Source: Acidimicrobiia bacterium | GTDB taxonomy: Bacteria > Actinomycetota > Acidimicrobiia > Spongiisociales > UBA5794 | NCBI GenBank assembly: GCA_041611095.1 | Contig: JBFINP010000003.1 | Span: forward strand, 2,800 to 66,799 | Length of the DNA: 64,000 bases | Reading direction: 5' to 3' | Shown here: one piece after another, positions 43,493-60,139 of the stretch | Numbering within the stretch: position 1 is the first letter of the stretch | How the letters are laid out: every line of letters begins with the position of its first letter | Notes under the pieces: model-generated | Seen by the model: the letters and a program-made list of their open reading frames with translations, nothing else | Told to the model about the DNA's origin: nothing | Database searches by the model: none | Position numbers and translations under genes: made by a program

Positions 43493-43506
43493 TGCAATCG
43501 ATAGTA
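43493..43506. promoter_or_regulatory. Degenerate copy of the LacI-type operator (TGCAATCGATAGTA)
   Basis: 2 mismatches to the TGCAATCGATTGCA core. Lies 28 nt upstream of the oxidoreductase ATG (43465). Confidence 0.35.
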
Positions 43507-43544
43507 GGAAGCTGCGTGTGGGGGCGCACCAGGGCCAAATGGCA

Positions 43545-44426
43545 TCACCCGGCCCCCGTGAGCACGACGAGGACGGAGCCGCCGACGACGGCGACCATCC
43601 CGGCGATGAGCCTCCACGTGAGGTGCTCCATCTCCGTGCCTACCACGACCGGGGCGACGAACACGACCACCGGGGTAGCCAGTTGCATGAGCGTGATGGC
43701 GACGCTGATCTCGATGAGGTCGTAGGCGATCCACTGCGAGGCGATGGATGCGCCGACGATCACGGCTCCCAGCGCGATCCAGCCTCCGGCGCCTCGAGGA
43801 TCGACGCCCCCGACCCGCGGCAGCCCGAGCGCGAGCACCAAGGCGTACAGGGCGGTGGCGGCGGCGAGTCCGACGGTCACGCCGACGAGGGGAATCGGGA
43901 GCCCGGACAGACCCCATCGGATGAACAGCGGGCTGCTACCCCAAGACATCGCCGAACCGAGGGCGAACCACGGCACCTGCGTCTGGTGGAGTCCCTCGGG
44001 GTCGGCGCGGGTGGCGATGAGGGCCACGCCGATGACAACGGCGAGCACGCCGAGCGCAGTGAGTGGTGGAAGCGGCTCATGGAGCACGAGCGCCGCCATC
44101 ACGCTTCCGATGAGCGGCGTGGCGGCGATGGCGACGCCGGTGCGGGAGGCGCCGATGCGTTGCTGACTGAGGCCGAGGAAGGTCCATCCGAAGAAGAAGT
44201 GGACGATCCCGGCGGCGGCGAACGCGGCAAACGCCCACACGGGGGCCGATCCCACCGGACCGAGGTCCTGGGTGGTGACCGCCACCACGGCGAGGATCAG
44301 CACGGCGGCGAGGAGGAGCCGGAACGTACCCCGGTAGGCGTCGATCAGCTGGTTGGCCCGCCGGTTCACGGCCTGGAAGATGCCGAAGCCGATCCCGGCG
44401 GCCACCGCCGCCATGATGCCCGTCAC
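43545..44426 (-). CDS. EamA/DMT-superfamily transporter
   Basis: 10-TM-like profile with two EamA halves. The start is set to GTG 44426, which forms a GTGA overlap with the stop of the Mo-hydroxylase gene. ATG 44414 is an alternative start. Confidence 0.85.
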   Translation of the reverse strand: MTGIMAAVAAGIGFGIFQAVNRRANQLIDAYRGTFRLLLAAVLILAVVAVTTQDLGPVGSAPVWAFAAFAAAGIVHFFFGWTFLGLSQQRIGASRTGVAIAATPLIGSVMAALVLHEPLPPLTALGVLAVVIGVALIATRADPEGLHQTQVPWFALGSAMSWGSSPLFIRWGLSGLPIPLVGVTVGLAAATALYALVLALGLPRVGGVDPRGAGGWIALGAVIVGASIASQWIAYDLIEISVAITLMQLATPVVVFVAPVVVGTEMEHLTWRLIAGMVAVVGGSVLVVLTGAG

Positions 44427-46720
44427 GGTGCGGCGCCCCGCACCGCCGCCTCGTTGAGGGCATGCCACACCCGGTCGGCAGTGAGTGGGATCTGCAGCTC
44501 GGTGACGCCGTAGGGCTCGAGTGCGTCGAGCGTCGCATTGATGATCGCCGGGGGCATCCCGATGCAGCCACCCTCACCGGCTCCCTTGGCCCCGAGCGGG
44601 TTCGACGGCGCCGGGTGCGTGAGGTGACCGAGCGCCAGCGGTGCGTCGAGCGCCGACGAGGGGATCAGGTAGTCCATGAAGGTGGTGCTCAGCGGCTGGC
44701 CGAGCTCGTCGTAGCGCATCCGCTCATAGAGGGCGGCGCCGAGCCCCTGTGTCACGGAACCGCGGACCTGACCCGTCACGATCATCGAATCGAGCACGGT
44801 GCCCACGTCGTCGACTGCGACGAGGCGCAGCGGCCGTACCCGTCCCGTTTCGAGCTCCACCTCGACGATTGCGACATGGACGCCATAGGGGAAGGTCTGC
44901 GCACCCGGGGAATACCGCTCCTCGGCGTACAGGGCGATCTGGCGGCCTTGCGCCTCGGCTGCGATCTGCGCGAGGGTGACGCCGGCGTCGGGAACCCCGG
45001 CGACCTGGACCGCACCGCCGACGAAGACGAGATCGCCCGGGTCGGCTTCGAGGAGGTCGGCCGCGACGCGAGCGGCGACCATTCGCACCTCCTCTGCGCA
45101 TCGCACCACGGCACTGGCTCCGATCTGCGCCGACCGGCTGGCGAAGCTCCCGACGGAGTCGGGCACCTCGGCGGTGTCGCCAGTGCGGAGGTCGACGGCC
45201 TTCGCCTCGACGCCGAACATGGTGGCTATCAGCCGGCGCCATACGGTGGCGTGTCCCTGGCCGGCCGACGTCGCTCCGGTGCGGACCACCACCTGCCCTT
45301 CCGTGTCGATGGTCACCGCGCCGTACTCCCACGAGTCGGGGGCACCGCCCGCCCGCTCGATGAAGGCTCCGAGTCCGATGCCGACTGGATCCTCACCTGC
45401 TTGGCGACGCCTCATCTGTTCTTGCCGAACCTCCTCGTAGGCGGCGATGCGTAACGCCTGCTCGAGCGCGGCGGCGTAGTCGCCCGAGTCGTGCTTTGCG
45501 CCGGTCGGCGTGACGTGGGGGAGTCGAGCGATGAGGTTGCGTCGCCGCAGCTCGGCCGGGTCGATTCCGAGTCTGCGGGCGAGGGCATCGATCGCCCGCT
45601 CGATGGCCAGGGCCGCCTCCGGTCGCCCGGCGCCCCGGTACGGCGCAGTCGGGGGCAGGTTGGTGACGGCGGCGATCAGCTCGAACTCGACACGCGGGAT
45701 GTCGTAGAGGCCCGTCGCCACCAATCGGGAGAACTGGCCGATCTGTGCGCCAACGTGGGGGTAGGCCCCGGTGTCGGTGGTGAGAACGAACCGGGCCTCG
45801 CGGATGTGTCCTTCTGCGGTGGCGCAGAGCGTCACCTCGTGGCGCTGGCTGCGACCGTGACTCCCGGCGACGAAGAGATCGCGGCGGGGCTGCACCCATG
45901 CCACCGGCCGCCGGAGGCGCAAGGCGGCGGCGGCGATCACCGCGTACTCGGGGTGGAATCGCTTCATCCCGAAGGCACCTCCCACGTTCGGCACGGAGAT
46001 GCGGATCTGGTCCGGTTCGAGGCCGAGCACGAGGGCGAGCTCGTCGCGCAACCGGTGGGGAGCCTGGGTCCCGACATGGAGGTGCAGCGCATCGTCGGTC
46101 GGGGTGGCGAGTGCGGCGAGGGGTTCGATGGGCGACGGCGCCAGCCGCGGGTGCTCTACCGCCACCGTCACCTCGACGAGGCCGCCGACCGGCTCCGGGC
46201 CTACGGCGAGCGTCTCATGGAGCACGACGTTCGTGCCGGCCGCCGGGTGGACCAGGCGCTCGGTCCCGGTGGCCTCGGCCACCGTCAGCACAGGCTCGCC
46301 CAGATCGATGTCGGCGAACACGAGGCCGGCGGCATCCTCGGCCTGGGCGGGCCGCTCGGCGAGCACGACGGCCACGGCCTGGCCGACGTGGGTGACCCGG
46401 TCTCGGGCGAGCATGGGTCGGGCCATCCCGGGGTGGTCACGCCCGCCGATGCGGGCGGGGAGATCGCGCAGGTCGAGGTCGGTGGCCGTGATGACGTCCA
46501 CGACGCCCGGCATGGCGGCGGCCGTACCAACGTCGATGGCGAGGAGGTCGCCGCGGGCGAACGGGCTGCGGACGAACCATGCATGAAGCGCATCCGGCGG
46601 GACGAGGTCCGCTGTGAAGGGTCCACTCCCGGTGACGAGGGGAGGGTCTTCGATACGCCGGTGCGACCTCCCGACCGGACCGGGGTCGCCTGGGGACGTC
46701 ACGAAGCGCGGAGGAAGCAC
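44423..46720 (-). CDS. Xanthine-dehydrogenase/aldehyde-oxidase-family molybdopterin-binding large subunit (CoxL-like)
   Basis: VGRSHRRIEDPPLVTGSGPFTADL is the N-terminal a/b-hammerhead motif. Other family blocks are GGAFGMK, PYRGAGRPEA, SAGQGH and GAKGAGEGG. Confidence 0.9.
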   Translation of the reverse strand: MLPPRFVTSPGDPGPVGRSHRRIEDPPLVTGSGPFTADLVPPDALHAWFVRSPFARGDLLAIDVGTAAAMPGVVDVITATDLDLRDLPARIGGRDHPGMARPMLARDRVTHVGQAVAVVLAERPAQAEDAAGLVFADIDLGEPVLTVAEATGTERLVHPAAGTNVVLHETLAVGPEPVGGLVEVTVAVEHPRLAPSPIEPLAALATPTDDALHLHVGTQAPHRLRDELALVLGLEPDQIRISVPNVGGAFGMKRFHPEYAVIAAAALRLRRPVAWVQPRRDLFVAGSHGRSQRHEVTLCATAEGHIREARFVLTTDTGAYPHVGAQIGQFSRLVATGLYDIPRVEFELIAAVTNLPPTAPYRGAGRPEAALAIERAIDALARRLGIDPAELRRRNLIARLPHVTPTGAKHDSGDYAAALEQALRIAAYEEVRQEQMRRRQAGEDPVGIGLGAFIERAGGAPDSWEYGAVTIDTEGQVVVRTGATSAGQGHATVWRRLIATMFGVEAKAVDLRTGDTAEVPDSVGSFASRSAQIGASAVVRCAEEVRMVAARVAADLLEADPGDLVFVGGAVQVAGVPDAGVTLAQIAAEAQGRQIALYAEERYSPGAQTFPYGVHVAIVEVELETGRVRPLRLVAVDDVGTVLDSMIVTGQVRGSVTQGLGAALYERMRYDELGQPLSTTFMDYLIPSSALDAPLALGHLTHPAPSNPLGAKGAGEGGCIGMPPAIINATLDALEPYGVTELQIPLTADRVWHALNEAAVRGAAP

Positions 46721-46803
46721 ATGGCGAAGGGTCTAGAGGATGGCCGCGAGGGCGCAGGCCGGCTCTGAGGTTTGCTCGCCATGGGACCACCGTTGATACG
46801 CGA

Positions 46804-46817
46804 TGCAATCGATTGTA
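46804..46817. promoter_or_regulatory. LacI-type operator TGCAATCGATTGTA
   Basis: 1 mismatch to the palindrome. Lies in the divergent region between 46720 (-) and 46907 (+). It is the exact reverse complement of the site at 46869. Confidence 0.7.
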
Positions 46818-46868
46818 ACCCCGGCGGCCATGGCGTCTATGCCGGAGGCGAGGCCGGTCGACCTAGGA

Positions 46869-46882
46869 TACAATCGATTGCA
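46869..46882. promoter_or_regulatory. LacI-type operator TACAATCGATTGCA
   Basis: 1 mismatch. Centre-to-centre distance to the site at 46804 is 65 bp. Lies 25 nt upstream of ATG 46907. Confidence 0.7.
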
Positions 46883-46906
46883 GCCCGACCGGGAGGAGCA
46901 TCGTCG

Positions 46907-47830
46907 ATGGCAGCGGAACACCGACTCGGATGGATCGGCACCGGCCGGATGGGCTTTGCGCTGTGTCGGCGGCTCCTCGATGCGGGTAGCGATCTCTGGG
47001 TCTACAACCGAACGCGGAGCAAGGCTGAGCCGCTCGAGGAGTTGGGGGCGAAAGTCGTCGACTCCCCGGGCGACTTGGCCGGCTGCGACATCGTCTTCAC
47101 GATGGTCGGTGGACCCAAAGACGTGATAGAGGTCACCACCGGCCCCAATGGCGTACTCGCCGGGTCGACGCGGCCCGAGGTCCTCGTCGACTCCACGACG
47201 ATCGACCCGAACACGAGCTCTCAACTCCGCGACGAGGCCGAAGCGCTCGGAGTCGGTGTGCTCGCCGCACCGGTGAGCGGCAACGCCAAAGTCGTGAAGT
47301 CGGGAAAGCTCACCGTCGTCGCATCGGGACCTCGGCCGGCCTACGACGCTGCCTTGCCCCATCTCGAGGCTTTCGGCCGCCGCGTGACCTACGTCGGCGA
47401 ACGGGACGAGGCTCGACTCGTGAAGCTGTGCCACAACCTCCACTTGGGTGTCGTCACCCAGTCGCTGGCCGAGATCACGATGCTGGCCGAGGCGGCCGGA
47501 GTATCGCGACACGACTTCCTTGCGTTCCTCAACGACAGCGTCATGGGCTCGACCTTCACCACGTACAAGACGCCCGCCTTCGTCAACCTCGATTGGACGC
47601 CCACCTTCACCTGGCATTTGCTGCGGAAGGACCTCGAGCTCGGCCTGGCGACGGCACGCGAGCTCGACGTGCCGATGCACACGGCGGCGCTGGTCCACCA
47701 GCTCGTTCTGGACGGGATCGGGCGTGGTCTGGGCGAGATGGATTTCGGCGCCCTCCTCGAACTCGAGGCCGCAGCCGCCGGCCGCCCCCTCGAATCGGAG
47801 GATCGCGAGGTCTCTGATGGTCTGGGCTGA
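46907..47830 (+). CDS. NAD(P)-dependent beta-hydroxyacid dehydrogenase (3-hydroxyisobutyrate/tartronate-semialdehyde reductase family)
   Basis: Trimmed to ATG 46907 behind GGGAGGAG. LGWIGTGRMGFALCRRL (GxGxxG), SGNAKVVKSGKLTVVASG and the 6PGD-like C-domain. Confidence 0.9.
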   Translation: MAAEHRLGWIGTGRMGFALCRRLLDAGSDLWVYNRTRSKAEPLEELGAKVVDSPGDLAGCDIVFTMVGGPKDVIEVTTGPNGVLAGSTRPEVLVDSTTIDPNTSSQLRDEAEALGVGVLAAPVSGNAKVVKSGKLTVVASGPRPAYDAALPHLEAFGRRVTYVGERDEARLVKLCHNLHLGVVTQSLAEITMLAEAAGVSRHDFLAFLNDSVMGSTFTTYKTPAFVNLDWTPTFTWHLLRKDLELGLATARELDVPMHTAALVHQLVLDGIGRGLGEMDFGALLELEAAAAGRPLESEDREVSDGLG

Positions 47831-47842
47831 GGGCGCCGTGCC

Positions 47843-49306
47843 ATGAGCGGGGAGCTCTTGCGGCAGATCACGCGAAACGGTGCGGCGAGGCTCTACGTCG
47901 GCGGCGAATGGGTCCCGGCATCCGACGGCGCCACGATGGACGTGCTCGACCCGGCGACGGGAGAGCGACTCGCCGAGGTCGCAAGCGCATCGGTCGATGA
48001 TGCCCTGGCAGCGGTGGGGGTTGCCTACGAGGCATCCGCATCGTGGGCGGCAACGCCGCCCCGAACCCGGGGCGAGATCCTCCGCAAGGCGTTCGAGATC
48101 ATGAACGCAAGGGCCGACGAGCTCGCCGAGCTGATCGTGCTCGAGATGGGCAAGGCCCTCCCCGAGGCACGGGGCGAGGTCACCTATGCCGCCGAGTTCT
48201 TCCGGTGGTTCTCCGAGGAGGCGGTGCGCAACCGGGGGACGGTCGGCATCGCACCGGGCGGCGACAAGCGCATCATCTCGCTGCACCAGCCGATCGGTGT
48301 GTCGGTGCTCATCACGCCGTGGAATTTCCCCGCCGCGATGGCCACCCGCAAGATCGGACCGGCCTTCGCCGCAGGGTGCACCGTGATCCTCAAGCCGGCC
48401 TCAGACACCCCGTTGACGGCGCTGGTTCTGGCCCAGATCCTCGAGGAGGCCGGGGCTCCCCACGGGACGATCAGCGTCATCCCGAGCCGGCGATCGGGCG
48501 CCGTCGGTGAGGCGATGCTGACCGACCCCAGGGTGCGCAACCTCTCGTTCACCGGCTCGACGCAGGTCGGGCGCTCCCTCCTCGAGGTGACGGCCCGCCA
48601 TGTTGTCCGCGCCTCGATGGAGTTGGGTGGCAACGCCCCGTTCCTCGTCTTCGACGACGCCGACATCGAGGCGGCCGTCGCCGGGGCGATGATCGCCAAG
48701 CTCCGTAACGGGGGGCAGTCGTGCATCGCCGCCAACCGGATGATCGTCCACGAGGCCGTGGCCGACGAGTTCTCGGCCCAGCTCGCCGCCGCCATGGCGG
48801 CGGTCACCACCGGCCCGGGTCTCGACCCGGGCGTCGAGCTGGGCCCGATGATCAACCAGGGTGCCCAGGACGACATGAAAGATCTCGTGAGCGTCTCCAC
48901 CGGTGCGGGTTCCGCGGTGGCGACGGGTGGCGCGGCCCCCGAGCGTCCCGGCTTCTTCTTCGAACCGACCGTCCTCACCGGGGTTGGCCACGACGATCCC
49001 ATCCTCCACAGGGAGATCTTTGGGCCGCTGGCTCCCGTGACCCGGTTCGAGACCGAGGAGCAGGCGCTGGCGCTCGCCAACGACACCGAGCATGGTCTGG
49101 CCGCCTACCTCTACACCGGCGACCTCGCCAGAGGGATGCGAGTAGCGGAGGCGATCGAGGCGGGCATGGTCGGCATCAATCGCGGGCTCATCTCGGATCC
49201 GGCCGCGCCCTTCGGTGGTGTCAAGGAGAGCGGTCTCGGCCGCGAGGGCGGCGAGCACGGCATCTTCGAGTTCCTCGAGACCAAGTACATCGCGGCCGAC
49301 TGGTAG
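47843..49306 (+). CDS. NAD(P)+-dependent succinate-semialdehyde/aldehyde dehydrogenase (GabD-like)
   Basis: ITPWNFPAAM, MELGGNAPFLVF (catalytic Glu), RNGGQSCIAANR (catalytic Cys) and FGGVKESGLGREG. Confidence 0.9.
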   Translation: MSGELLRQITRNGAARLYVGGEWVPASDGATMDVLDPATGERLAEVASASVDDALAAVGVAYEASASWAATPPRTRGEILRKAFEIMNARADELAELIVLEMGKALPEARGEVTYAAEFFRWFSEEAVRNRGTVGIAPGGDKRIISLHQPIGVSVLITPWNFPAAMATRKIGPAFAAGCTVILKPASDTPLTALVLAQILEEAGAPHGTISVIPSRRSGAVGEAMLTDPRVRNLSFTGSTQVGRSLLEVTARHVVRASMELGGNAPFLVFDDADIEAAVAGAMIAKLRNGGQSCIAANRMIVHEAVADEFSAQLAAAMAAVTTGPGLDPGVELGPMINQGAQDDMKDLVSVSTGAGSAVATGGAAPERPGFFFEPTVLTGVGHDDPILHREIFGPLAPVTRFETEEQALALANDTEHGLAAYLYTGDLARGMRVAEAIEAGMVGINRGLISDPAAPFGGVKESGLGREGGEHGIFEFLETKYIAADW

Positions 49307-49325
49307 CCCGTCCAGTGCCCGGGGG

Positions 49326-49823
49326 CTACGCCCCGCCGGTCGGCTTGCGTAGCCACACCATCTCCGTCTTGACGCCGGCGTCGGTGATCAGATTGAAGAC
49401 GGGACAGCGCGCTTCGGTCTCGGCGACGATCGCGGCCAGCCGCTCTTCGCTCTCGTCGGTCGTCACGGTGGCCTGGAGACGCACGGTCTGGTAGTGCGCC
49501 CGGACATCCCGTTTCCCCATCCGCCCTCGGATGTCGATGGTGAACGCCGCCTCGAACTGGATGCCCTCGTAGGCGAACCCGAACTCGTCGGCGGCGCGCC
49601 GGAACGTGACCGCCTCGCATCCGCACAACGCCCCGAGCACAGTCTGCAACGGTGAAGGACCCTCGCCGGTGCCGCCATGGGCGACCGGCTCGTCCGTGAC
49701 GAAGTGCCCGTACTCGCCGAAGTCGATGATGGTCATCATCGTTGCCTCGGTGGACGCAGAGAGCGTCTTGCGGCGTACGATCGGCTCGATCAGGTCCTCG
49801 ACGTTCTTGATCTCGGTGCCCAA
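49326..49823 (-). CDS. OsmC/Ohr-family peroxiredoxin-like protein
   Basis: GPSPLQTVLGALCGCEAVT and ETEARCPVFNL are the two conserved Cys blocks of the OsmC family. Confidence 0.85.
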   Translation of the reverse strand: MGTEIKNVEDLIEPIVRRKTLSASTEATMMTIIDFGEYGHFVTDEPVAHGGTGEGPSPLQTVLGALCGCEAVTFRRAADEFGFAYEGIQFEAAFTIDIRGRMGKRDVRAHYQTVRLQATVTTDESEERLAAIVAETEARCPVFNLITDAGVKTEMVWLRKPTGGA

Positions 49824-49839
49824 GACGCACCTCCTCGTG

Positions 49840-51045
49840 TCATGGCGAATCGGATGAAGGGTGGGGTAGGCGGGCCGGCTCCCGCGTGTCGGGTACGAGA
49901 ACCGCCGCCATCACCGTCACGACGGCGACGAACACAATGAGCGGCAGCGTCGCCAGCCCCTTTCCCGACGTCTCGTAGAGCACTCCGGCCAGCAATGGCG
50001 CCGCCAGGAGAGCGACATCGCCCGTCAATCGGAACATCGCCAGCTGTGGGCCGAGCCGGGCACCTTCGCTGAGGTCGGCGAGGATGGTTGCTCCGACGTT
50101 GACCCCCGACGAGCCGAGCGATGTCAGGATGATCGCCAGCCACCAGCCGGTGAGGGAGCTCCAGGCGGCGAAGCATCCAAGGCCGACGAGCTGCATGGCG
50201 AGGCCCGGGAGCAGCGCCCAGCGCCTCGAATACGCATCGGAGATCCGGCCGCTGACGAGGGCGCCGACGAGTCGGAGGAGCCCGGCGACGCCGATGGCGG
50301 CACCGACGACGCCGACGCCGAGGCCGAACTCGCCGTCGCCGACGATGGGTACCAGTGTCTGTAGCAAGGCACCTCCGATGGCGAACTGGACGGCGGGGAG
50401 GAGGTAGAGGGCGAATCGCACCGACCGGCGGATCGCCGGCAGCTCCGAGTCCGACGCGGCCATTGGTCGCATCGTCTTGGTTGTGCGCGGTGGTCGCATC
50501 AAGAGCAGCGCCATCGCCAGACCGAGGACGGCAGCCGCACCGAACGCCACTCTCCAGCTCGAGAGCGCGGCGATGGCGCCGCCGAACGCCGGCCCCACCG
50601 CCTGACCCACCAGCAATGCCGTGGCGAATCCGGACATCGCCACCCCGCGCCGCTGGCGGGGCGCCTCGGCGAAGGCGGCGATGCCGGTCGTGTTTGTCCA
50701 GGCCGATCCGACGCCGAGCCCGAAGGCGGCGACGAAGGCAACGGCGCTCGTCGGTGCGGCGCCCGCCAGCAGACTCCCCGAGGCCACGATCGTCGCCGCG
50801 ATCGCCAGCATGGACCGGCTGGGCCGGCTGTCGGTGAGCCGTCCCGCCGGAATGTCGGCGATGATGCGGCCCAGAGCGAAGACGGCGACGAACGCACCGA
50901 GGGCGGCAGGACCCATAGCGAGATCGCGACCCATCTCGGGGAGGAGAGGTGCGCGGACGTGCGCCGCCACCGTGATCGTGAACACACCAACGCCGACGAA
51001 CACGAGGCTCGGCGGCAAGGGCGGACGCTCGTGCTCCCGACTCAC
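49840..51045 (-). CDS. MFS transporter
   Basis: Trimmed to GTG 51045, which forms a GTGA overlap with the LacI stop. 12-TM-like profile and an MFS loop motif GRLTDSRPSRSM / GRISDAYSRR. Confidence 0.85.
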   Translation of the reverse strand: MSREHERPPLPPSLVFVGVGVFTITVAAHVRAPLLPEMGRDLAMGPAALGAFVAVFALGRIIADIPAGRLTDSRPSRSMLAIAATIVASGSLLAGAAPTSAVAFVAAFGLGVGSAWTNTTGIAAFAEAPRQRRGVAMSGFATALLVGQAVGPAFGGAIAALSSWRVAFGAAAVLGLAMALLLMRPPRTTKTMRPMAASDSELPAIRRSVRFALYLLPAVQFAIGGALLQTLVPIVGDGEFGLGVGVVGAAIGVAGLLRLVGALVSGRISDAYSRRWALLPGLAMQLVGLGCFAAWSSLTGWWLAIILTSLGSSGVNVGATILADLSEGARLGPQLAMFRLTGDVALLAAPLLAGVLYETSGKGLATLPLIVFVAVVTVMAAVLVPDTREPARLPHPSSDSP

Positions 51046-52058: not shown

Positions 52059-52116
52059 CGCGGACCGTCGGGGCGCGGCACTCGGCTCCCGGGTCCGGGG
52101 AGCCGGCCGTCGCCCG

Positions 52117-52542
52117 TCACGACGCCCGGCTCGGGCCGTCCGGGGTCGCCGGGGCGGCGGGGGCCCAGGTGCACCGATCATCGCCGATCCACACGGTCGC
52201 GGACGGCGCAGGCACCCACAACTCGATGAAGCTGAACTCCTCCTGATGAGGGTTGTCGAACCAGTGGACCTCGCCTTCGTCCACCAGTGCAACGTCGCCG
52301 GCTCCGAGCTGGATCGGAGTCCCGTCGGCATGAAGAGTGCCGCAGCCCGACAGGATGAGGAAGAAGTGCTTGGCGTCGCGGTGGAAGTGGGGCGCCGCCG
52401 TGTCGCCGGGGTGGTACGTGATCCGATCGGCACGGACGTCGGTCAGACCAAAGATGTCCTCGGTGATGAGGTCGACGCGGTCTCGAGTGTCTCGCGTCGA
52501 AGTGAGTTGCGGAAGCTGATCGGCGTGGACCACGCGGGCCAT
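52117..52542 (-). CDS. Cupin-domain protein
   Basis: GDTAAPHFHRDAKHFFLILSGCGTL...GDVALVDEGEVHWF contains cupin motifs 1 and 2 (HxH...H). Confidence 0.8.
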   Translation of the reverse strand: MARVVHADQLPQLTSTRDTRDRVDLITEDIFGLTDVRADRITYHPGDTAAPHFHRDAKHFFLILSGCGTLHADGTPIQLGAGDVALVDEGEVHWFDNPHQEEFSFIELWVPAPSATVWIGDDRCTWAPAAPATPDGPSRAS

Positions 52543-52585: not shown

Positions 52586-52601
52586 CTGCAATCGTTTGCA
52601 G
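52586..52601. promoter_or_regulatory. LacI-type operator CTGCAATCGTTTGCAG
   Basis: 1 central mismatch to the palindrome. Lies between divergent starts 52542 (cupin-LacI-MFS-OsmC operon) and 52668/52701, which implies autoregulation. Confidence 0.7.
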
Positions 52602-52667
52602 GAGGCGGCGGACCTGTGTCCGAGGAGATCAACCGAGGGCCGTCCACCCCGGGCCACGGGGTGCGGC

Positions 52668-53834
52668 GTGCACCGTGAGGAGGCGATCGGCCTCCGCCTC
52701 ATGGGCCACTCGGACCTCGGAGGCTTCGGAGATGGCATGCAGCTCATGCGATCGGGTGACGCCCTCTACGTCGGCCATTTCGGGCCCAGCGGGATGGGCA
52801 CCTCGATTCTCGACGTCTCCGACCCGGCACACCCCGAGGTGGTGACCCAATGGCGAGCACCCCCTCATAGCCACACCCACAAGGTGCAGGTCGCCGACGG
52901 TCTGTTGCTGACCAATCACGAGCAGTTCCGGAGCGACGAGCCGTGGTCGGCGGGTATGGCGGTCTACGACCTGGCAGACCCCTTTGCACCGCAACGCATC
53001 GGCTTCTGGGAGAGCAGCGGGCGCGGGGTTCACAGGATCGTCTACGAGGGTGGCCGGTACGCCTACGCATCGGCGACCCCCGAGGGCTTCACCAGCAGGA
53101 TCTGGGTGATCATCGACCTCGCCGATCCGGAGCACCCCGTCGAGGTCGGCCGCTGGTGGTGGCCCGGTCAATGGTCTGCCGGGGGAGAGCGGCCCACGTG
53201 GCCCGAAGGCGAGGATTGGAACACCCACCACGCCATGGTGAACGGGGAGCGCGCCTACCTGGGGTTGTGGGACGGTGGCATGGTGATCCTCGACATCGGC
53301 GACCTCGCGGCGCCGACCCTCGTCTCCCACCTCACCTGGCGGGAAGGCGGCGAGACTCATACCTGCCTGCCGCTCCCCAGCCGCGACCTCGTGGTCGTCA
53401 CCGACGAGGCCACGTCCGACGGATGTACCGGTCCACCGCACATGGTGCGGGTGGTCGATGTCAGCGACGAGACGGCGCCGGCCGTGCTCGCGACATGTCC
53501 CGAGCCTGTGGGCGACTTCTGTGATCGCGGTCTTCGCTTTGGATCCCACTGCCTCCACGAGAACAGGCCAGGCAGCTACCGCAGCGAGGAGCTCGTGTTC
53601 GTGACCTACTTCAACGCCGGGTTGCGGGTGTACGACCTCGCCGACCCCGCGGCGCCCGTCGAAGTCGCTTCATACGTGCCGCGCTGCCCGTCTGGACAGC
53701 AGGCGATCCAGATCAACGACGTGTGGGTCGGCGACGACCACGTGATCTACATCACCGACCGCATTCGTGGAGGCGTGTACATCCTGGAGCCCGACCCGGC
53801 GCTGGACGCCCGTATGACCGAGGCTGCTGCGTGA
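52668..53834 (+). CDS. LVIVD-repeat beta-propeller protein
   Basis: Repeated ...(I/V)(L/Y)D(V/L)(S/A)DPxxP... units: SILDVSDPAHPEVV, AVYDLADPFAPQRI, VIIDLADPEHPVEV, VILDIGDLAAPTLV, RVVDVSDETAPAVL, RVYDLADPAAPVEV. The start is uncertain (GTG 52668 or ATG 52701). Confidence 0.8.
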   Translation: MHREEAIGLRLMGHSDLGGFGDGMQLMRSGDALYVGHFGPSGMGTSILDVSDPAHPEVVTQWRAPPHSHTHKVQVADGLLLTNHEQFRSDEPWSAGMAVYDLADPFAPQRIGFWESSGRGVHRIVYEGGRYAYASATPEGFTSRIWVIIDLADPEHPVEVGRWWWPGQWSAGGERPTWPEGEDWNTHHAMVNGERAYLGLWDGGMVILDIGDLAAPTLVSHLTWREGGETHTCLPLPSRDLVVVTDEATSDGCTGPPHMVRVVDVSDETAPAVLATCPEPVGDFCDRGLRFGSHCLHENRPGSYRSEELVFVTYFNAGLRVYDLADPAAPVEVASYVPRCPSGQQAIQINDVWVGDDHVIYITDRIRGGVYILEPDPALDARMTEAAA

Positions 53835-54826
53835 GCGCGAGCATCGACGTCCACGCCCACTGTGTACCGGCCGAGCTGATGGCGGCGCTCGCCGCCGACG
53901 GCGCCGACTTCGGTATCGAGCTGACGGAGGACCGGCGTGCGGTCATCGCCGGGGGCAGACCAACCCTGCCCATCAGGGACGACCTCGTCGACTTCGACCT
54001 GCGCCTGGCGTCGATGGACCGCGCCGGCATCGAGCTCCAAGCGCTCTCGAGCTGGGTCAACCTGACGGCGTATGGCCTCGATGCCGCCCCCGGAGCGAGG
54101 TGGTCGCGCCGCGTCAACGAGGCACTTGCCGTAGAGGCCGCCCGCCGCCCCGACAGGTTCGTGGCCTTGGCGACGGTACCGCTGCAGGATCCCGACGTAG
54201 CAGCCGCCGAGCTGGCCTACGCAGTGGGTGACCTGGGCATGGTGGGTGTCGAGATCGCGACCAGGGTCGGAGCGACAGATCTCGTCACGGCGGATCTCGA
54301 CCCCTTCTGGGCGGCTGCCGAGCGGCTGGGCAGTCTCGTGTTGCTGCATCCCATGGATCCGCTCCCCGGCATCGACCTCAAGCGCCATTTCCTCCACAAC
54401 ATGGTGGGCCGCCCCGCCGAGACGACCATTGCGATCGCCCGCCTCGTCATGGCCGGCGTCTTCGACCGCTACCCGAAGCTCAAGGTCTGCGTGGTCCACG
54501 GAGGAGGGTTTCTGCCCTATCAGATCGGCCGCATGCAGCAGGGATGGCGGGCCATGCCGGGTGTCGCCGACACCGATCTGAGGACACCACCGCTCGAGAC
54601 GCTGCGCCGCCTCTACTTCGACACGGTCCTGCACAACCCTCAGGCGCTCCGCTACCTCATCGACCTCGTCGGCGCCGACCGCATCATGATCGGGACCGAC
54701 TATCCCTTCGAGGCCGGTGACCACGACCCGCTCGCCACGATCGAAGCCATACCCCGGCTGACCGGGGACGAACGCACCATGATCCTGTCGGGCACTGCAC
54801 GGACCCTGATCGGAGGACAACCATGA
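53831..54826 (+). CDS. Amidohydrolase_2 (ACMSD / gamma-resorcylate decarboxylase-like) metal-dependent hydrolase/decarboxylase
   Basis: GTG 53831 forms a GTGA overlap. IDVHAHCVP (HxH), VLLHPMDP, VCVVHGGGFLPYQIGR and MIGTDYPF are family hallmarks. Confidence 0.9.
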   Translation: MSASIDVHAHCVPAELMAALAADGADFGIELTEDRRAVIAGGRPTLPIRDDLVDFDLRLASMDRAGIELQALSSWVNLTAYGLDAAPGARWSRRVNEALAVEAARRPDRFVALATVPLQDPDVAAAELAYAVGDLGMVGVEIATRVGATDLVTADLDPFWAAAERLGSLVLLHPMDPLPGIDLKRHFLHNMVGRPAETTIAIARLVMAGVFDRYPKLKVCVVHGGGFLPYQIGRMQQGWRAMPGVADTDLRTPPLETLRRLYFDTVLHNPQALRYLIDLVGADRIMIGTDYPFEAGDHDPLATIEAIPRLTGDERTMILSGTARTLIGGQP

Positions 54827-55962
54827 CCAGCACGCTCGGGTTCGCCCCCAGCGAAGACCCGTTCGTCGTGGAGCATGGCGGCTTCTACCGGCGATGGTTG
54901 TCGATGATCGACGACATGTCCGAACTCGAGACCCTCGTGGGTCGGCTCGAGGGAACGACGGAGGACAAGTGGGTACCGGTGTGGCGTTCGGCGGGTCGCC
55001 GCCACGAGGACGCCGGGGATGCGCTCGAGGAGACCGGAGATCTCGCCGGGGCGCGCACGGCCTACCTCCAGGCTAAGACCTACTACGCGATCGCCCGCTT
55101 CCCCGGCGAGATCACCCCGCTCAAGGCCGAGGTCAGCGCCGAGTGCGCTCGTGCGTACCGCAAGGCCTGCCGCCATCTCGACCCTCCCTTGGAGATCGCC
55201 GCCGTCGATTGCGAGGGCCAGACGATCACGACCCACTTCCGTGCCCCTCCGGGCTCGGGTCCCGACAATCCGGCCCCCGCCGTCCTGGTCATGTGCGGAG
55301 CCGACGTCTTCAAGGAAGACCGCGGCTGGGCAGGGGAGATGGCCCTCGACGAAGGGCTGGCTTCACTCGTCATGGATGGCCCCGGCACGGGTGAGAACCC
55401 CTTTCCGTGGGACCCGGCCTCGGTGAGAGCATGGGTCGCCGCCATCGACTACCTGGCGGGTCGGACCGAGGTGGATGCCGACCGCATCGCCGCGTTCGGG
55501 ATCAGCCGCGGCGGCTATTCGGTGATGCAACTCGCCGGAACTCATCCGGAGCGGGTCAAGGCGGTCGTGGCCATCGCCGGTCACCCGTTCGGCTACCAGA
55601 TGACGGACGCAGAGCTGGATGAGTACATCGCGGCGCTCAACAGACGCTCTTCCTTCGTGTTCGGAGAGCCCGGCGGTCCGCCTTCGTTCCCGACGTGGTC
55701 GCGCAAGAAGGATCGCGAGATGTTCGACAGGTGGGCGCTGTCCAAGCTCGGGGTCCTCGAGGCGATCACCCAGCCAATCCTGATGATCAACGGCAAGCAC
55801 GACCATCTGGCGCCGATCGGCAACATCTACTTCATGCTCGAGCACGGCCCGGTGACCGGGCGGGAGGCCCGGGTCTACCCGGACGCCGGTCATTGCGCCT
55901 TCAAGTACTTCCGGGAGTGGGCTCCGGCCTCCTTTGCGTGGATCCGGCGGAAGCTCGGTTGA
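54823..55962 (+). CDS. Alpha/beta hydrolase, FrsA/DUF1100-like esterase
   Basis: ATG overlaps the upstream TGA. TAYLQAKTYYAIARFP is the FrsA-like N-domain. GISRGG is the nucleophile elbow. Also INGKHDHLAP...GHC. Confidence 0.85.
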   Translation: MTSTLGFAPSEDPFVVEHGGFYRRWLSMIDDMSELETLVGRLEGTTEDKWVPVWRSAGRRHEDAGDALEETGDLAGARTAYLQAKTYYAIARFPGEITPLKAEVSAECARAYRKACRHLDPPLEIAAVDCEGQTITTHFRAPPGSGPDNPAPAVLVMCGADVFKEDRGWAGEMALDEGLASLVMDGPGTGENPFPWDPASVRAWVAAIDYLAGRTEVDADRIAAFGISRGGYSVMQLAGTHPERVKAVVAIAGHPFGYQMTDAELDEYIAALNRRSSFVFGEPGGPPSFPTWSRKKDREMFDRWALSKLGVLEAITQPILMINGKHDHLAPIGNIYFMLEHGPVTGREARVYPDAGHCAFKYFREWAPASFAWIRRKLG

Positions 55963-55968
55963 GCCCGG

Positions 55969-56811
55969 TCAGCGCAGCGGGGCGAGCGCGGCGGCGATGA
56001 CGGGGACGGGGTCCGCCTCAACCGGTGGGAACTTGGTGACCAGGATGTGTGAAGCGCCTGCCTCCAGGAAGCGGCCGGCCAGCTCGGTGAGCTCGCCCGG
56101 CGACTCCGGCATGCGGATCTGCACCGACACCTCGATGTCGCCGGCGTCCCGACCGATCTCGGCGCACAGCTCGCGCAGCAGCTCGTGGTGCTGCACCAGG
56201 GTCTCCGGTGGCTCCTCCGGGTTGAAGTAGTTCCAGTGGTCGGCCCAGCGGGCGACGAGCGGCATCGTGCGACGGGGGCCGATGCCGCCGATGACGAGCG
56301 GGGGGCGCGGCTTCTGCACCGGCTTCGTCATCAGCGTGGCGCCGGACAGGCGGAAGTGGGTGCCGTCGAAGCTGAAGGTGTCCCGGGTCAGGAGGCCGTC
56401 CACGATCTCGAGGGCTTCGGCGAGCCTTGCCCACCGCTCGGCAGGGCTTCCCAGATCGATGCCAAAAGCATCGTGCTCGGCCTCGTGCCAGCCTGCGCCC
56501 AGTCCGATCTCGAGCCGTCCCCCGGAGATCCGATCGACAGAGACCGCCATGTGGGCGAGCAACGCCGGGTGGCGGAACGTGTTGGAGCTCACCATCACGC
56601 CGATCCGGAGCCGCGACGTGATGGCGGCCAGCGATGCCAGCGTGGTCCACGACTCCCACATCGGCCGGATGGGGCCGCGCGGCGGGTAGAAATGGTCGAA
56701 GAGCCAGCCGGCATCGAAGAACCCGGCGGCATCGGCGTCTCGCCAGCTCGCCGACAGATCCGGCCACGAGATGTCGACCGGGGCGATCTTGAAGGAGAAC
56801 TTGGGAGTCAC
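55969..56811 (-). CDS. LLM-class (luciferase-like) flavin/F420-dependent oxidoreductase
   Basis: Trimmed to GTG 56811 (GTGA overlap). LFDHFYPP, RLRIGVMVSSNTFRHPALLA and GRLEIGLGAGW. Confidence 0.85.
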   Translation of the reverse strand: MTPKFSFKIAPVDISWPDLSASWRDADAAGFFDAGWLFDHFYPPRGPIRPMWESWTTLASLAAITSRLRIGVMVSSNTFRHPALLAHMAVSVDRISGGRLEIGLGAGWHEAEHDAFGIDLGSPAERWARLAEALEIVDGLLTRDTFSFDGTHFRLSGATLMTKPVQKPRPPLVIGGIGPRRTMPLVARWADHWNYFNPEEPPETLVQHHELLRELCAEIGRDAGDIEVSVQIRMPESPGELTELAGRFLEAGASHILVTKFPPVEADPVPVIAAALAPLR

Positions 56812-57863
56812 GACAGGCCGGCACCTTCGAGCAGGGGGGCGACGTCGACGGCACGCCCGTCCCGGACCGACGACTCGAGGGCGGCCCGCACCACCGCCAG
56901 CGCCCTCATTGCCTCGTCGATGCCGACCTCTACGTCGGCCCGGCCCCGAATGGCCAGGCCGAACTCGTCGAGCTGCTCCCGGAACATGTCGGTGGTCGGC
57001 AAGGGAACGATCTTGCGCGTCATGTCCCGGTAGCTCTGGGAGACCAAGGTGCTCCACTCGTCGGCCTCGTGAGAGGCGTCCCAATGGGTGAAGTCGAGGT
57101 CGTACATGAGGTTGGCCTTGGTGCCTTGGAGCCGGAGCTGATAGATCCCGGGGGAGGCCCACCCACAACCGATGTAGCCGAGCGCCCCCGATTCGAACTC
57201 GAGGATCGCCATGACCGCATCGGGCACCTCGGACGCGGTGTAGAGCTTGCGGGCGTGCGCCGTGACCCGGGCGACGGGACCGAGGAGGTACTGCAGGTTG
57301 TCGGCGTGGTGCACGCCGAGCTGGATGAACGTGCCCCCCGGGCTCTTGTCCGCATACCACCGCCAGGTCTCCGGGGTGAGCTCGAGACCTCGCTCGTTGG
57401 AGAAGTTGGCCTCGGCGAGGGAGACGTCTCCGAGCGAGCCCGATTCGATCCACTCCCTCATCACCCTACTCCCGGCCAAGCGCCGGGCGCTGTGTCCCAC
57501 GGCGAAGACGCCTCCCGAGGCGGAAACCGCGTTCCGCACGTCGAGGGCGTGCTCGAGCGTGTGGGTGATCGGCTTGTCGGTATAAACCGCCTTCCCGGCC
57601 TCGAGTGCGGCGATGATGAGGTCGCGGTGGGTGTCGTTCGGGGTGGTGATGATCACGCCCTCGACGTCGTCGTCGTGCAGCAGCTCGTCCAAGGTCTCCG
57701 CTGCCTTGGGGACCCCGAACTCCTCTTGGAAGGCATCGCGGCGGTCCGCCGAGCGGCTGAAGCAGGAGTGCAGCTCGATGACATCGCCACGCTGGGCCCC
57801 GCGGGCGAGCACCTTCGCCCAGCGCCCGAGACCGATGGATGCCAGCCGTACCTTGTCGTTCAT
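56808..57863 (-). CDS. Gfo/Idh/MocA-family NAD(P)-dependent oxidoreductase
   Basis: VRLASIGLGRWA (Rossmann), VIITTPNDTHRDLIIAALEAGKAVYTDKP (EKP-like motif). Confidence 0.9.
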   Translation of the reverse strand: MNDKVRLASIGLGRWAKVLARGAQRGDVIELHSCFSRSADRRDAFQEEFGVPKAAETLDELLHDDDVEGVIITTPNDTHRDLIIAALEAGKAVYTDKPITHTLEHALDVRNAVSASGGVFAVGHSARRLAGSRVMREWIESGSLGDVSLAEANFSNERGLELTPETWRWYADKSPGGTFIQLGVHHADNLQYLLGPVARVTAHARKLYTASEVPDAVMAILEFESGALGYIGCGWASPGIYQLRLQGTKANLMYDLDFTHWDASHEADEWSTLVSQSYRDMTRKIVPLPTTDMFREQLDEFGLAIRGRADVEVGIDEAMRALAVVRAALESSVRDGRAVDVAPLLEGAGLS

Positions 57864-58267
57864 CGGTGGTCCCTTGGTGTGTCGTGGTCCGTCATCTTGG
57901 CGTCCGTGGTGACATCGATGGTGGTCTCCTCCATGTTGTCGGCCAGTTGGGGGTGAGGGAAGAAGCAGACGAGCTCCATGACCTCATCGTCGTTGGGGAT
58001 GGTGGCGTGAGCGGCTCCGACCGGGACGTGGATCGTGTCGCCGGCGCGCACCGGCGTTCGCTCTCCGTCGATGTACACGACGCCGGATCCCTTGCGTACG
58101 AACACGACCTCCTCACTGGCGGGATGGCGGTGGGCGAACCGGCGCCGGCCCGGAGCCAGCTCCACGATGCGAACGCTCGATGCGGCCGGAACGTCCCGTA
58201 GCGGGTCGGCTGAGCGGCGTCCGGGGAGCTCGGCGAAGGGCACGTCATCGCCTCCGATCACCGCCAT
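57860..58267 (-). CDS. Cupin-domain protein
   Basis: Trimmed to ATG 58267. FAHRHPASEEVVFVRKGSGVV...GDTIHVPVGAAHA are cupin motifs. The stop overlaps the Gfo start (ATGA). Confidence 0.8.
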   Translation of the reverse strand: MAVIGGDDVPFAELPGRRSADPLRDVPAASSVRIVELAPGRRRFAHRHPASEEVVFVRKGSGVVYIDGERTPVRAGDTIHVPVGAAHATIPNDDEVMELVCFFPHPQLADNMEETTIDVTTDAKMTDHDTPRDHR

Positions 58268-59016
58268 GAGCGCAGCTCGAAGATGTTGCGGACATGGCCG
58301 ACGATGTCGTTGGCCACCGTTGCGGCGAAGCCGGCGGCGAGCTCCTCGGTGGCCCATGCGGGATCGCCGTACCAACCTGCCGGATCGATCTCGGTGACAT
58401 CGGTGATGTAGCCGTAGACGTCTCGGCGGCGGCGCATGGCATCCATGGCTGCGGCCCGATCCGATCGTGTGGTCTCCTCCACCAGCTCGCCGTGGACGAG
58501 TGCCGGGTCGTAGGCGAGCACCGCAAGCGCCTCGAGTCCTCCACCGTGGGTGAGCTCGCCGCCGTCTTCGGCGTAGAGCCGCTGCGCCACGTAACAGGCC
58601 TGGGCCGCCACCACCTGCACGTCCGGGTGGCGGGTCTGCAGGCTCGTGGCGACGGCATCGAGCGCGGCGATGTTGCCTTCGTGCCAGTTGACGAACACGA
58701 AGCTGCGCGCCCCCATGGCGACGAGCTCGTCGCACACGTCGGTGACGAGGGCCTCGAACGTCTCGCGCCGGAGGCTCACGGTGCCTGGATGGCCGGCGTG
58801 GATGGGCGTGATGCCGTAGGGGGCGAAGGCCACGAGGAGGGCGTCGAGGCCGGCGGCGACCTCGGCGGCGACGAGCTCGGCGGCGATGGTATCCGTCCCC
58901 GCGGGAAGGTGCGGACCGTGTTGCTCGACGCTGCCGAAGGGCAGCACCGCCACCGGTGAGCGGCTGAGCACCGCCGCCACCTCGGGGCTCGTCATGTGGA
59001 AGAGCGAGCGACTCAC
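58258..59016 (-). CDS. Creatininase-family amidohydrolase
   Basis: Start GTG 59016 (GTGA overlap, GAGGAGG upstream) or ATG 58995. LPFGSVEQHGPHLPAGTD, FVNWHEGN and THGGGLE are creatininase metal-site motifs. Confidence 0.85.
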   Translation of the reverse strand: MSRSLFHMTSPEVAAVLSRSPVAVLPFGSVEQHGPHLPAGTDTIAAELVAAEVAAGLDALLVAFAPYGITPIHAGHPGTVSLRRETFEALVTDVCDELVAMGARSFVFVNWHEGNIAALDAVATSLQTRHPDVQVVAAQACYVAQRLYAEDGGELTHGGGLEALAVLAYDPALVHGELVEETTRSDRAAAMDAMRRRRDVYGYITDVTEIDPAGWYGDPAWATEELAAGFAATVANDIVGHVRNIFELRSWR

Positions 59017-59969
59017 GACACCTCCTCGGGGATCACGGGGTTGTGGACGGGTTGGCCCTCGAGGATGCGGCGGGCCTCGGCGGCGGCCTTCGTGCGCAGA
59101 TCCCGCTCCGACTCCTCGGTGTACCAGGCCATGTGGGGGGTCAGCAGCAACCGATCCATGACCGTGGCGAACTGCGTCGGGTCCGGTGGCTCCGGCTGGA
59201 AGACGTCGAGCGCAGCGTATGCGGGACGCCCGAGTTGGAGCGCCGACACCAAAGACTCGGTGTCGACCAGGGAGCCGCGCGCGGTGTTGACCAGGATGCT
59301 GCCCGGTTTCATGCGTGCCAGCTCGGCACGCCCGAGGAGGGGCGTCCCGTCGCCGGGAGCCGGGGCGTGCAGTGTGACGACATCCGACTCCGCGAGGAGT
59401 TGAGACCACGAGGCCGGCTCGACGCCGGGCACGTCGACCGGACTCCCCGGATCGTGGGCCAGCACCCGTCCGAACCCGAGGCTGCTGAGATGGGCGGCCG
59501 TGCGCCGTCCGATCCGGCCGAATCCGACGATCCCGACGGTGAGGGCGGATGGGAGATGGACCGGCCCGAGTCCGGCGATGTCCCATGCGCCGGCCTTCAC
59601 CAGCCGATCTGCGTCGGGCAGGCGACGCACCAAAGCCAGGACGAGCGCGACGGCGTGGTTGGCCACGGCGTCGGTGCCGTAGTCGGGAACGATGGCGACG
59701 ACGATGCCCAGCCGGTGGGCGGCGACGATGTCGATGTTGTCGTGACCGACGCCGTAACGGACGATGCCCCGGCAGGTGAGCCGGGCGAGCGTGTCGGCGT
59801 CGAAGCGAGGGTGCGGGCCGGCGAGGATCACCTCTGCGCCACCGGTCGCATTCACGATCTCGTCCCGGGTCGCGCCTGCGCTACGGGCGATCTGGTCGGA
59901 ACCGAGATTGAGAACGCCACACTCGATGTCCGCATCCGGCCATCGGGCTCCCAGGATCGCCACCGGCAT
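59013..59969 (-). CDS. D-isomer-specific 2-hydroxyacid dehydrogenase
   Basis: Trimmed to ATG 59969 behind GGAGGTGGA. VGIVGFGRIGRR (GxGxxG), NTARGSLVD and TPHMAW (catalytic His). Confidence 0.9.
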   Translation of the reverse strand: MPVAILGARWPDADIECGVLNLGSDQIARSAGATRDEIVNATGGAEVILAGPHPRFDADTLARLTCRGIVRYGVGHDNIDIVAAHRLGIVVAIVPDYGTDAVANHAVALVLALVRRLPDADRLVKAGAWDIAGLGPVHLPSALTVGIVGFGRIGRRTAAHLSSLGFGRVLAHDPGSPVDVPGVEPASWSQLLAESDVVTLHAPAPGDGTPLLGRAELARMKPGSILVNTARGSLVDTESLVSALQLGRPAYAALDVFQPEPPDPTQFATVMDRLLLTPHMAWYTEESERDLRTKAAAEARRILEGQPVHNPVIPEEVS

Positions 59970-60004
59970 CACTCCACCTCCGGTGCGACACAGTAGCCGA
60001 CGGT

Positions 60005-60020
60005 CTGCAATCGATTGCAG
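60005..60020. promoter_or_regulatory. LacI-type operator, perfect 16-bp palindrome CTGCAATCGATTGCAG
   Basis: Perfect dyad, 36 nt upstream of ATG 59969 on the minus-strand operon side. Confidence 0.75.
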
Positions 60021-60048
60021 ACGCAGATCACGAGAACGCAGATCACGA
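60021..60048. repeat. Tandem direct repeat ACGCAGATCACGA (x2, period 15) abutting the operator
   Basis: 60021-60033 and 60036-60048 are identical 13-mers separated by GA. Confidence 0.6.
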
Positions 60049-60123
60049 CACAGGGGTGCGGGGTCGGACGAGCGGCGCATCGTTTGACATGGCTTCATTG
60101 GACACCGTATGTTCTGGAGAGAG

Positions 60124-60139
60124 CTGCAATCGATTGCAG
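60124..60139. promoter_or_regulatory. LacI-type operator, perfect 16-bp palindrome CTGCAATCGATTGCAG
   Basis: Second perfect copy, 119 bp from the first (centre to centre). It sits just downstream of a candidate promoter, TTGACA (60084-60089), 18 nt, TATGTT (60108-60113), for the ABC operon. Confidence 0.75.

Follow-up and report, generated by a model that had tools for sequence, protein, structure and literature searches.

Within the LacI family, E. coli PurR binds the PUR box and the RbsR, CytR, and CcpA types of regulator bind related operators, all of the form TGnAAnCGnTTnCA. Across the LacI/GalR family, operators are even palindromes of 14-20 bp with a central CG that lie mostly 30-140 bp before start codons, 72% of the regulators are autoregulated, 96% of the groups with an assigned pathway control carbohydrate use, and 93% of the regulons comprise at most 20 genes, most of them 2-7 (Ravcheev et al. 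2014, PMC4052901). The locus described here lies in a stretch of 64,000 nucleotides of an Acidimicrobiia bacterium (hereafter the window; GenBank assembly GCA_041611095.1, contig JBFINP010000003.1), that is, positions 2800-66799 of contig C3 in a 3.55-Mb assembly of 157 contigs with 67.7% G+C and a completeness of ~93%. In about 17 kb of this window, a palindrome of the LacI type is found six times in the gaps between genes, and it is very probable, judging from the sequence and its comparison among genomes, that these six palindromes are the operators of a LacI-family repressor encoded at 51042-52058, which would repress seven transcription units including its own.

The 16-mer CTGCAATCGATTGCAG was searched for across the whole window with tolerance for mismatches and the positions were then read directly in the sequence, whereas genes were called by GC3 frame analysis together with Pfam, NCBIfam, and PDB sequence searches. 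Two perfect copies, 60005-60020 and 60124-60139, lie 119 bp apart, and inexact copies are found at 52586-52601 (one mismatch), 46868-46883 (two), 46803-46818 (three), and 43492-43507 (three). The 14-mer cores of the second pair, TGCAATCGATTGTA and TACAATCGATTGCA, are exact reverse complements located 65 bp apart. The original prediction, made by reading this DNA alone, had listed two perfect, three near-perfect, and one degenerate copy, and both the copies and their coordinates were recovered. The six sites, designated A to F, are the following:

43493-43506: operator A, TGCAATCGATAGTA (minus-strand reading TACTATCGATTGCA), 27 nt before the ATG of the flavin adenine dinucleotide (FAD) oxidoreductase gene; 25.6 bits with the position weight matrix (PWM)
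46804-46817: operator B, TGCAATCGATTGTA, with a -10-like TACAAT on the minus strand facing the molybdenum-hydroxylase gene (start 46720)
46869-46882: operator C, TACAATCGATTGCA, which includes a -10-like TACAAT and is separated by 24 nt from the downstream ATG of the beta-hydroxyacid dehydrogenase gene
52586-52601: operator D, CTGCAATCGTTTGCAG, common to the divergent cupin-LacI-MFS-OsmC and LVIVD-decarboxylase-hydrolase operons
60005-60020: operator E, a perfect palindrome; the -10-like TACTGT of the 2-hydroxyacid dehydrogenase operon (complement of 59991-59996) lies 8 nt downstream of it
60124-60139: operator F, likewise a perfect palindrome, which follows the -10 of the predicted importer promoter at a distance of 10 nt

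Shuffled versions of the window that preserve dinucleotide composition contain 0.15 matches, versus seven in the actual sequence. The remaining match, at 39300 with three mismatches, lies inside the MscS (mechanosensitive-channel) gene, reaches 12 bits, and was taken as a chance match. Intergenic DNA amounts to ~729 of the 16,732 bases between 43466 and 60197 (4.4%), and by our own gene calls it contains all six sites, as had been claimed; moreover, every promoter-bearing gap of the cluster is occupied by sites. Their placement at three divergent control regions and in the gap upstream of the FAD oxidoreductase gene agrees with the earlier description, and so does their design, since they are even palindromes with a central CG of the LacI/GalR kind.

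In the whole assembly, no 16-mer with two or fewer mismatches was found outside the cluster. The genome scan with a PWM that had been proposed was carried out with a symmetrised matrix, and strong matches were confined to the cluster, the six sites scoring 25.6-29.7 bits and the next best matches 18.2, 18.0, and 15.5 bits. The best matches outside, C52:18996, C5:9002, and C101:5434, were considered as remote members of the regulon and rejected, as two of them lie in coding frames and one lacks the central CG. The six palindromes are the only strong matches in the assembly.

The only transcription factor encoded in the cluster is a LacI-family protein with a helix-turn-helix (HTH) domain and an effector domain:

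51042-52058, minus strand: LacI-family repressor, 338 aa (Pfam LacI, Peripla_BP_3, Peripla_BP_1)

The LacI-type HTH (PF00356, residues 7-53) scores 46.8 bits against a cut-off of 27, and the effector domain, of the periplasmic-binding-protein fold, scores 129.7 bits with Peripla_BP_3 and 111.2 bits with Peripla_BP_1. In sequence searches of solved structures, the best full-length matches are RbsR, CcpA, and PurR (E 1e-41 to 1e-46), the identity to proteins of these types being only ~30-35%, and all 19 NCBIfam equivalog matches remained below their cut-offs, the best being RbsR with 210 bits against 382. The recognition helix begins GVHASTASRALN, and the hinge that follows the HTH reads NPMARGLRT, with a leucine kept in all orthologues. 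Also kept in all orthologues is the helix GVHxST(A/V)SRAL, in which a His stands where the family usually has a Ser. The 58 bp that separate the cupin gene from the LacI gene hold no operator, so that co-transcription of the regulator from operator D, its predicted autoregulatory site, is probable. Thus, the regulator gene, on the minus strand, lies inside a controlled operon and would be autoregulated, in agreement with the original prediction.

Orthologues of the regulator are present in 13 of 40 related genomes, belonging to other genera and families of the same order, with 50-71% identity, and in 80 loci fetched from public sources, with 42-73% identity, which amounts to ~90 other genomes in all. 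Their hosts include Acidimicrobiia metagenome-assembled genomes, Candidatus Spongiisociaceae, Gaiellaceae, and numerous members of the Alpha-, Beta-, and Gammaproteobacteria, with Chelativorans, Amorphus coralli, Devosia enhydra, Inquilinus, and Iodidimonas among the cultured carriers. The palindrome travels with them. Near the orthologues, the 14-mer core occurs in 129 copies with at most two mismatches in 1.35 Mb, against 2-4 in shuffles, and 51 of these 129 sites are located at most 300 bp upstream of the regulator gene; their consensus is TGCAAWCGWTTGCA, and the central CG is invariant in 100% of them. With up to three mismatches allowed, a site is found in 20/20 Acidimicrobiia-type loci and in 56/60 of the others, whereas five of the seven loci of distant LacI paralogues that served as negative controls have none. 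Most of the sites are located upstream of the regulator or of orthologues of genes in the window. Moreover, they follow orthologues of the HIBADH-family beta-hydroxyacid dehydrogenase, OsmC, the cupin and LVIVD proteins, the FAD oxidoreductase, EamA, the molybdenum hydroxylase, the 2-hydroxyacid dehydrogenase, and the family-5 binding protein despite rearranged gene order, and for every one of the seven units there is support from two or more other genomes.

This distribution also bears on the identity and the mode of action of the protein that binds the palindrome, which could be a LacI paralogue or a regulator of another family; alternatively, the LacI protein could act as an activator. Three more LacI-family genes in the genome and the few orthologue loci without the motif would be compatible with another regulator. 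However, the three paralogues carry different recognition helices, with the ordinary GVS start and without the GVH signature, and the motif accompanies this particular orthologous group across phyla, whereas sites placed over a -10 element or a transcription start fit repression and not activation. Both possibilities are therefore regarded as highly improbable in comparison with repression by the LacI protein of the cluster.

The phylogenetic footprinting proposed earlier was performed and was strongly positive. An alignment of the region upstream of the HIBADH gene from eight genomes shows no conserved blocks apart from the two operators and the ribosome-binding site, and in the upstream alignments overall, conservation is restricted to operators, ribosome-binding site, and promoter hexamers. 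Read toward the HIBADH gene, the proximal operator is TACAATCG(A/T)TTGCA in every Acidimicrobiia locus with a site beside the orthologue, and it is separated from the ATG by 24-31 nt in loci L035, L037, L038, L040, and L041, the five nearest to the window, and by 52-63 nt in L042, L044, and L045, while the distal operator shows TACAAT to the divergent gene. This TACAAT variant makes up 25% of the half-sites in Acidimicrobiia versus 1% elsewhere, and at the HIBADH gene it is always oriented toward the gene. The actinobacterial -10 element has the form TANNNT, and the variant would fit such an element built into the operator.

The same alignments leave little room for the idea that the palindrome is a generic intergenic repeat, resembling repetitive extragenic palindromes (REP) or miniature inverted-repeat transposable elements (MITE), or a restriction-type palindrome devoid of any regulatory role. 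It is certainly multi-copy and contains ATCGAT, a common restriction palindrome. Nevertheless, its flanks are not repeated, its copies keep constant positions with respect to start codons and promoters, they are kept in distant phyla in which the flanking DNA is not, and the 3.55 Mb hold no strong copy beyond the 17-kb stretch. A similar density elsewhere or in coding DNA, which the original prediction had named as the mark of a generic repeat, was looked for genome-wide and not found, and this explanation has a negligible probability.

A separate observation concerns locus L023 (G017:C39), where three overlapping operator-like copies with a 13-bp period, TGACAATCGTTTGCAG, CAATCGTTTGCAG, and CAATGGTTTGCAG, occupy positions 17502-17541 upstream of the cupin orthologue. 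The arrangement suggests that half an operator was duplicated in tandem at this locus.

The distances between sites and start codons range from 24 to 83 nt, and all six operators overlap or directly adjoin a predicted -10 element or a predicted transcription start, which makes simple repression the likely mechanism. Operator A reads TACTAT toward its gene; a better copy of it lies 37 nt upstream of the orthologous FAD oxidoreductase gene in genome G017 (L024 17079) as well as in L054. On the minus strand, operator B forms part of the promoter match TAGACG-16-TACAAT, a block kept in five relatives; an alternative start of the molybdenum-hydroxylase gene at a conserved CCAT near this operator was rejected, being out of frame. 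When the region is aligned with L035, L037, and L038, operator D stands out as a block of 15 invariant nt, placed between the divergent starts 52542 and 52668. Operator E, kept in L037 together with CACAGTAGCC, has a predicted position in the spacer or -35 zone of the 2-hydroxyacid dehydrogenase operon. Operator F belongs to the importer operon, for which a promoter is predicted:

60084-60113, plus strand: predicted sigma-70-type importer promoter, TTGACA-18-TATGTT (-35 TTGACA, -10 TATGTT)

Since the -10 TATGTT ends 10 nt before operator F, this site would cover the predicted transcription start, and the promoter hexamers and operator F are both kept in L037. A 13-bp direct repeat, ACGCAGATCACGA(GA)ACGCAGATCACGA, adjoins operator E at 60021-60048; it was considered as a regulatory part and dropped, as it is not kept in L037, the closest relative with the intergenic region.

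Two of the three divergent regions hold two sites, and site pairs upstream of the HIBADH orthologue recur in relatives. The original prediction had considered the paired sites of the window, 65 and 119 bp apart, compatible with looping. In this case, a repressor oligomer would bridge the operators at 46.8 kb and those at 60 kb and repress both divergent promoters cooperatively. The protein, however, is of PurR-like length (338 aa), and since it can be aligned to the LacI subfamily model NF007075 only as far as position 334 of 358, it lacks the C-terminal tetramerisation segment. Moreover, the spacings of the pairs, 56, 65, 65, 67, 78, 78, 87, and 97 bp in relatives and 119 bp here, display no helical phasing. 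Each paired site overlaps a different promoter, and the pairing is thus explained without looping. Looping is therefore unlikely, and this part of the prediction is not supported.

For simple repression by the LacI protein, we infer the following sequence of events. A repressor dimer would bind each TGCAAWCGWTTGCA site and, by analogy with the family, its two recognition helices would read the GCAA half-sites while its hinge-helix leucines would enter the central CpG. In operators A, B, and C, the site itself includes a -10-like hexamer, TACAAT or TACTAT, for the gene that it faces, and because the sites lie on or abut predicted promoters, the bound repressor would exclude RNA polymerase from the seven units (~23 genes), its own unit included. 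The repressor would be released by a small-molecule effector, probably either an intermediate or the substrate that is imported. Some points weigh against this interpretation. The PWM was derived from the same six sites that it scores, and the promoter hexamers were assigned by consensus matches only. In addition, gammaproteobacterial orthologue loci L070, L072-L074, and L076 have no recognisable site, so that the coupling between motif and regulator is imperfect, and the content of the regulon is atypical of the family, with no kinase, aldolase, isomerase, or glycosidase present.

The original prediction of a single local regulon stands, whereas its count of six units and roughly 20 genes is corrected to seven units and ~23 genes, arranged as follows:

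40948-43465, minus strand: unit 1, CrtI/amine-oxidase-like flavoprotein (41873-43465) and S9/DLH-type alpha/beta hydrolase (40948-41862)
43545-46720, minus strand: unit 2, molybdenum-hydroxylase large subunit (44423-46720) and EamA transporter (43545-44468)
46907-49306, plus strand: unit 3, beta-hydroxyacid (HIBADH-family) dehydrogenase (46907-47830) and succinate-semialdehyde-dehydrogenase-like aldehyde dehydrogenase (47843-49306)
49326-52542, minus strand: unit 4, cupin (52117-52542), LacI, MFS transporter (49840-51039), and OsmC-like protein (49326-49823)
52668-55962, plus strand: unit 5, LVIVD beta-propeller, ACMSD-like amidohydrolase_2 decarboxylase (53831-54826), and Ayg1/DHPON-hydrolase-like alpha/beta hydrolase (54823-55962)
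55969-59969, minus strand: unit 6, D-2-hydroxyacid dehydrogenase, creatininase-family hydrolase, cupin, Gfo/Idh/MocA oxidoreductase, and F420-type luciferase-like oxidoreductase
60198 to ~66693, plus strand: unit 7, Dpp/Opp-type ABC importer with family-5 binding protein (60198-62003), permease 1 (62089-63102), permease 2 (~63105-64031), and two ATPases

Unit 3 is the conserved core of the regulon, with the HIBADH orthologue, the most frequently kept partner, beside the regulator in 57/80 loci and the aldehyde dehydrogenase orthologue in 21/80; its hydroxyacid dehydrogenase is closest to the succinate-semialdehyde/glyoxylate reductases of Geobacter and Arabidopsis (3pef, 3pdu, 3doj). The gene pair of unit 1 and its upstream site are kept in G017. 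For unit 2, sites lie upstream of the molybdenum-hydroxylase or EamA orthologues in L038, L040, L053, G017, G023, and G010, and no genes for the small and medium subunits of the hydroxylase ([2Fe-2S] and FAD subunits) were found within the genomic island, described below, that holds the regulon. In unit 5, the decarboxylase reaches 207 bits to human ACMSD, and the hydrolase has structure-sequence matches to Ayg1 (8qd7) and DHPON hydrolase (2jbw). Blocks orthologous to unit 6 occur with sites in L037, L045, L063, and L075. Unit 7 comprises five genes, the last two and a half of which extend beyond the window, and sites precede orthologous importers in L037 and in the alphaproteobacterial L097, L100, and L105. 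The first ATPase of this unit (genome C3 ~66827-68155, window-equivalent 64028-65356) contains a Cys-rich insert, CPECDGHGCGRCHGSGRVPSACETCGGAGCDGCGDTGHH, inside its OppD-type nucleotide-binding domain, which resembles the DnaJ-type CxxCxGxG zinc-finger repeats.

Two genomes of the same genus have no orthologous regulator. One of them, G002 (9 contigs), has 29 bp between its MscS orthologue and the next gene, which is orthologous to an ABC exporter located here at window-equivalent 67918-70110, and the synteny with G002 continues downstream. The adjacency of the two genes in G002 identifies the 27.7 kb at 40152-67917 as an insertion or deletion relative to that genome. This accessory island contains the 23 regulon genes, flanked to the left by a mycothiol-isomerase-like gene and to the right by one or two small genes, and island and regulon are nearly co-extensive. 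The binding protein and permease of the importer and the two alpha/beta hydrolases (40948-41862, 54823-55962) are 62-85% identical to homologues in the alphaproteobacterial L097, L100, and L105, in which regulator and operator adjoin these homologues and the regulator itself shows 42-44% identity. The high identity of importer and hydrolases in comparison with that of the regulator suggests a recent transfer of modules between phyla.

With regard to the function of the regulon, no NCBIfam equivalog was found for any of the island enzymes, and PDB sequence searches provided leads only, namely succinate-semialdehyde/glyoxylate reductases, ACMSD, Ayg1/DHPON hydrolase, and creatininase; none of the enzymes is typical of sugar pathways. 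The HIBADH-family and aldehyde dehydrogenases suggest a conversion of a hydroxy acid to a semialdehyde and then to a dicarboxylate, possibly succinate. In proteobacterial loci, the same operator is associated with creatinase-like M24 hydrolases, FrsA/Ayg1-like hydrolases, 2-oxoacid dehydrogenase E1/E2, a DAO-type flavoprotein, amidohydrolases, a glutathione transferase, and several ABC importers. Plasmids of Bosea and Rhizobium encode a LacI homologue of 47-48% identity with the same helix, GVHPSTVSRAL, and the same operator. Sites on these plasmids are located at 11908-11935 in L115 (Bosea vaviloviae NZ_CP017148.1) and at 11720 and 17274 in L116 (Rhizobium leguminosarum CP050554.1), and the plasmid operon that the homologue faces and would control encodes an intradiol dioxygenase, an SDR protein, an enzyme of the 3-keto-5-aminohexanoate-cleavage family, a Zn-alcohol dehydrogenase, a cupin, and an amidohydrolase, a set that we take to recall phloroglucinol/hydroxyquinol breakdown.

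Pathways of the creatinine/creatine, ectoine, pantothenate, 4-guanidinobutyrate, nicotine, kynurenine, and phloroglucinol types were compared with the locus, and none was matched by its full gene set. From the gene content of these loci, we conclude that the LacI clade would control non-carbohydrate catabolism of small nitrogen-containing and/or ring compounds. A wider proposal, which is plausible but tentative and which we hold with somewhat less than even confidence, is that a distinct multi-phylum LacI clade, defined by the helix GVHxST(A/V)SRAL and the operator TGCAAWCGWTTGCA, governs one or more undescribed non-carbohydrate pathways. Their core could consist of the hydroxyacid and aldehyde dehydrogenases, accompanied by lineage-specific M24 hydrolases, C-C hydrolases, thiamine-dependent E1/E2, and ring-cleavage dioxygenases, and in the present genome the set would have grown to ~23 genes that possibly convert a nitrogen-containing or ring compound to succinate semialdehyde. 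If this were true, naming the effector would define a widespread new nutrient pathway.

Literature searches with the operator core returned unrelated primers only, those combining LacI with the enzyme families or with Acidimicrobiia returned nothing relevant, and no description of the orthologous group, the motif, or an effector was found in them. Through the regulon, 23 poorly annotated genes of an uncultured actinobacterial lineage, marine or from soil, can be treated as a single functional unit whose borders are defined. Moreover, it gives a strong starting point for identifying the substrate of a pathway that has its core in common with many bacteria of soil, the sea, and plants, and it illustrates the expansion of a regulon from a two-gene divergon in Proteobacteria to seven operons.

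In its enzyme content only, the island resembles nicotine/pyridine-ring and kynurenine-type clusters, with which it shares a molybdenum-hydroxylase large subunit, an amine-oxidase/CrtI-like flavoprotein, a relative of DHPON hydrolase and Ayg1, an ACMSD-like decarboxylase, and an aldehyde dehydrogenase of the succinate-semialdehyde-dehydrogenase type. Unlike those clusters, it has no equivalog-level match to their enzymes and lacks the small and medium molybdenum-hydroxylase subunits, and LacI-type regulators are not known from these pathways. With PurR, RbsR, CytR, and CcpA, the regulator shares the operator core GCAA-N-CG-N-TTGC and the hinge-helix leucine, whereas its recognition helix starts with His instead of Ser or Thr; PurR needs a corepressor, whereas most members of the family are released by an inducer. 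As in E. coli LacI with lacO1, lacO2, and lacO3, there are several operators per control region and operator F lies over a predicted transcription start, but the tetramerisation helix is absent, the spacing is not conserved, and each operator seems to serve its own promoter. The closest likeness is with the local regulons of the LacI/GalR family (PMC4052901), in which an HTH is likewise joined to a domain of the periplasmic-binding-protein fold, an even palindrome with a central CG lies tens of bases before the starts, and an autoregulated regulator is clustered with its targets; the distances of 24-83 nt fit this norm. In contrast to those regulons, the targets in the island are not carbohydrate, nucleoside, or purine genes, the size of ~23 genes in seven units belongs to the top few percent, and a predicted -10 hexamer lies within the operator. 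Thus, the mechanism is that of an ordinary local LacI/GalR regulon of the catalogued type, a textbook repressor regulon that does not change the understanding of how such switches work but offers a clear case of a LacI-family regulator over non-carbohydrate catabolism and an example of operators with a predicted -10 hexamer inside a half-site.

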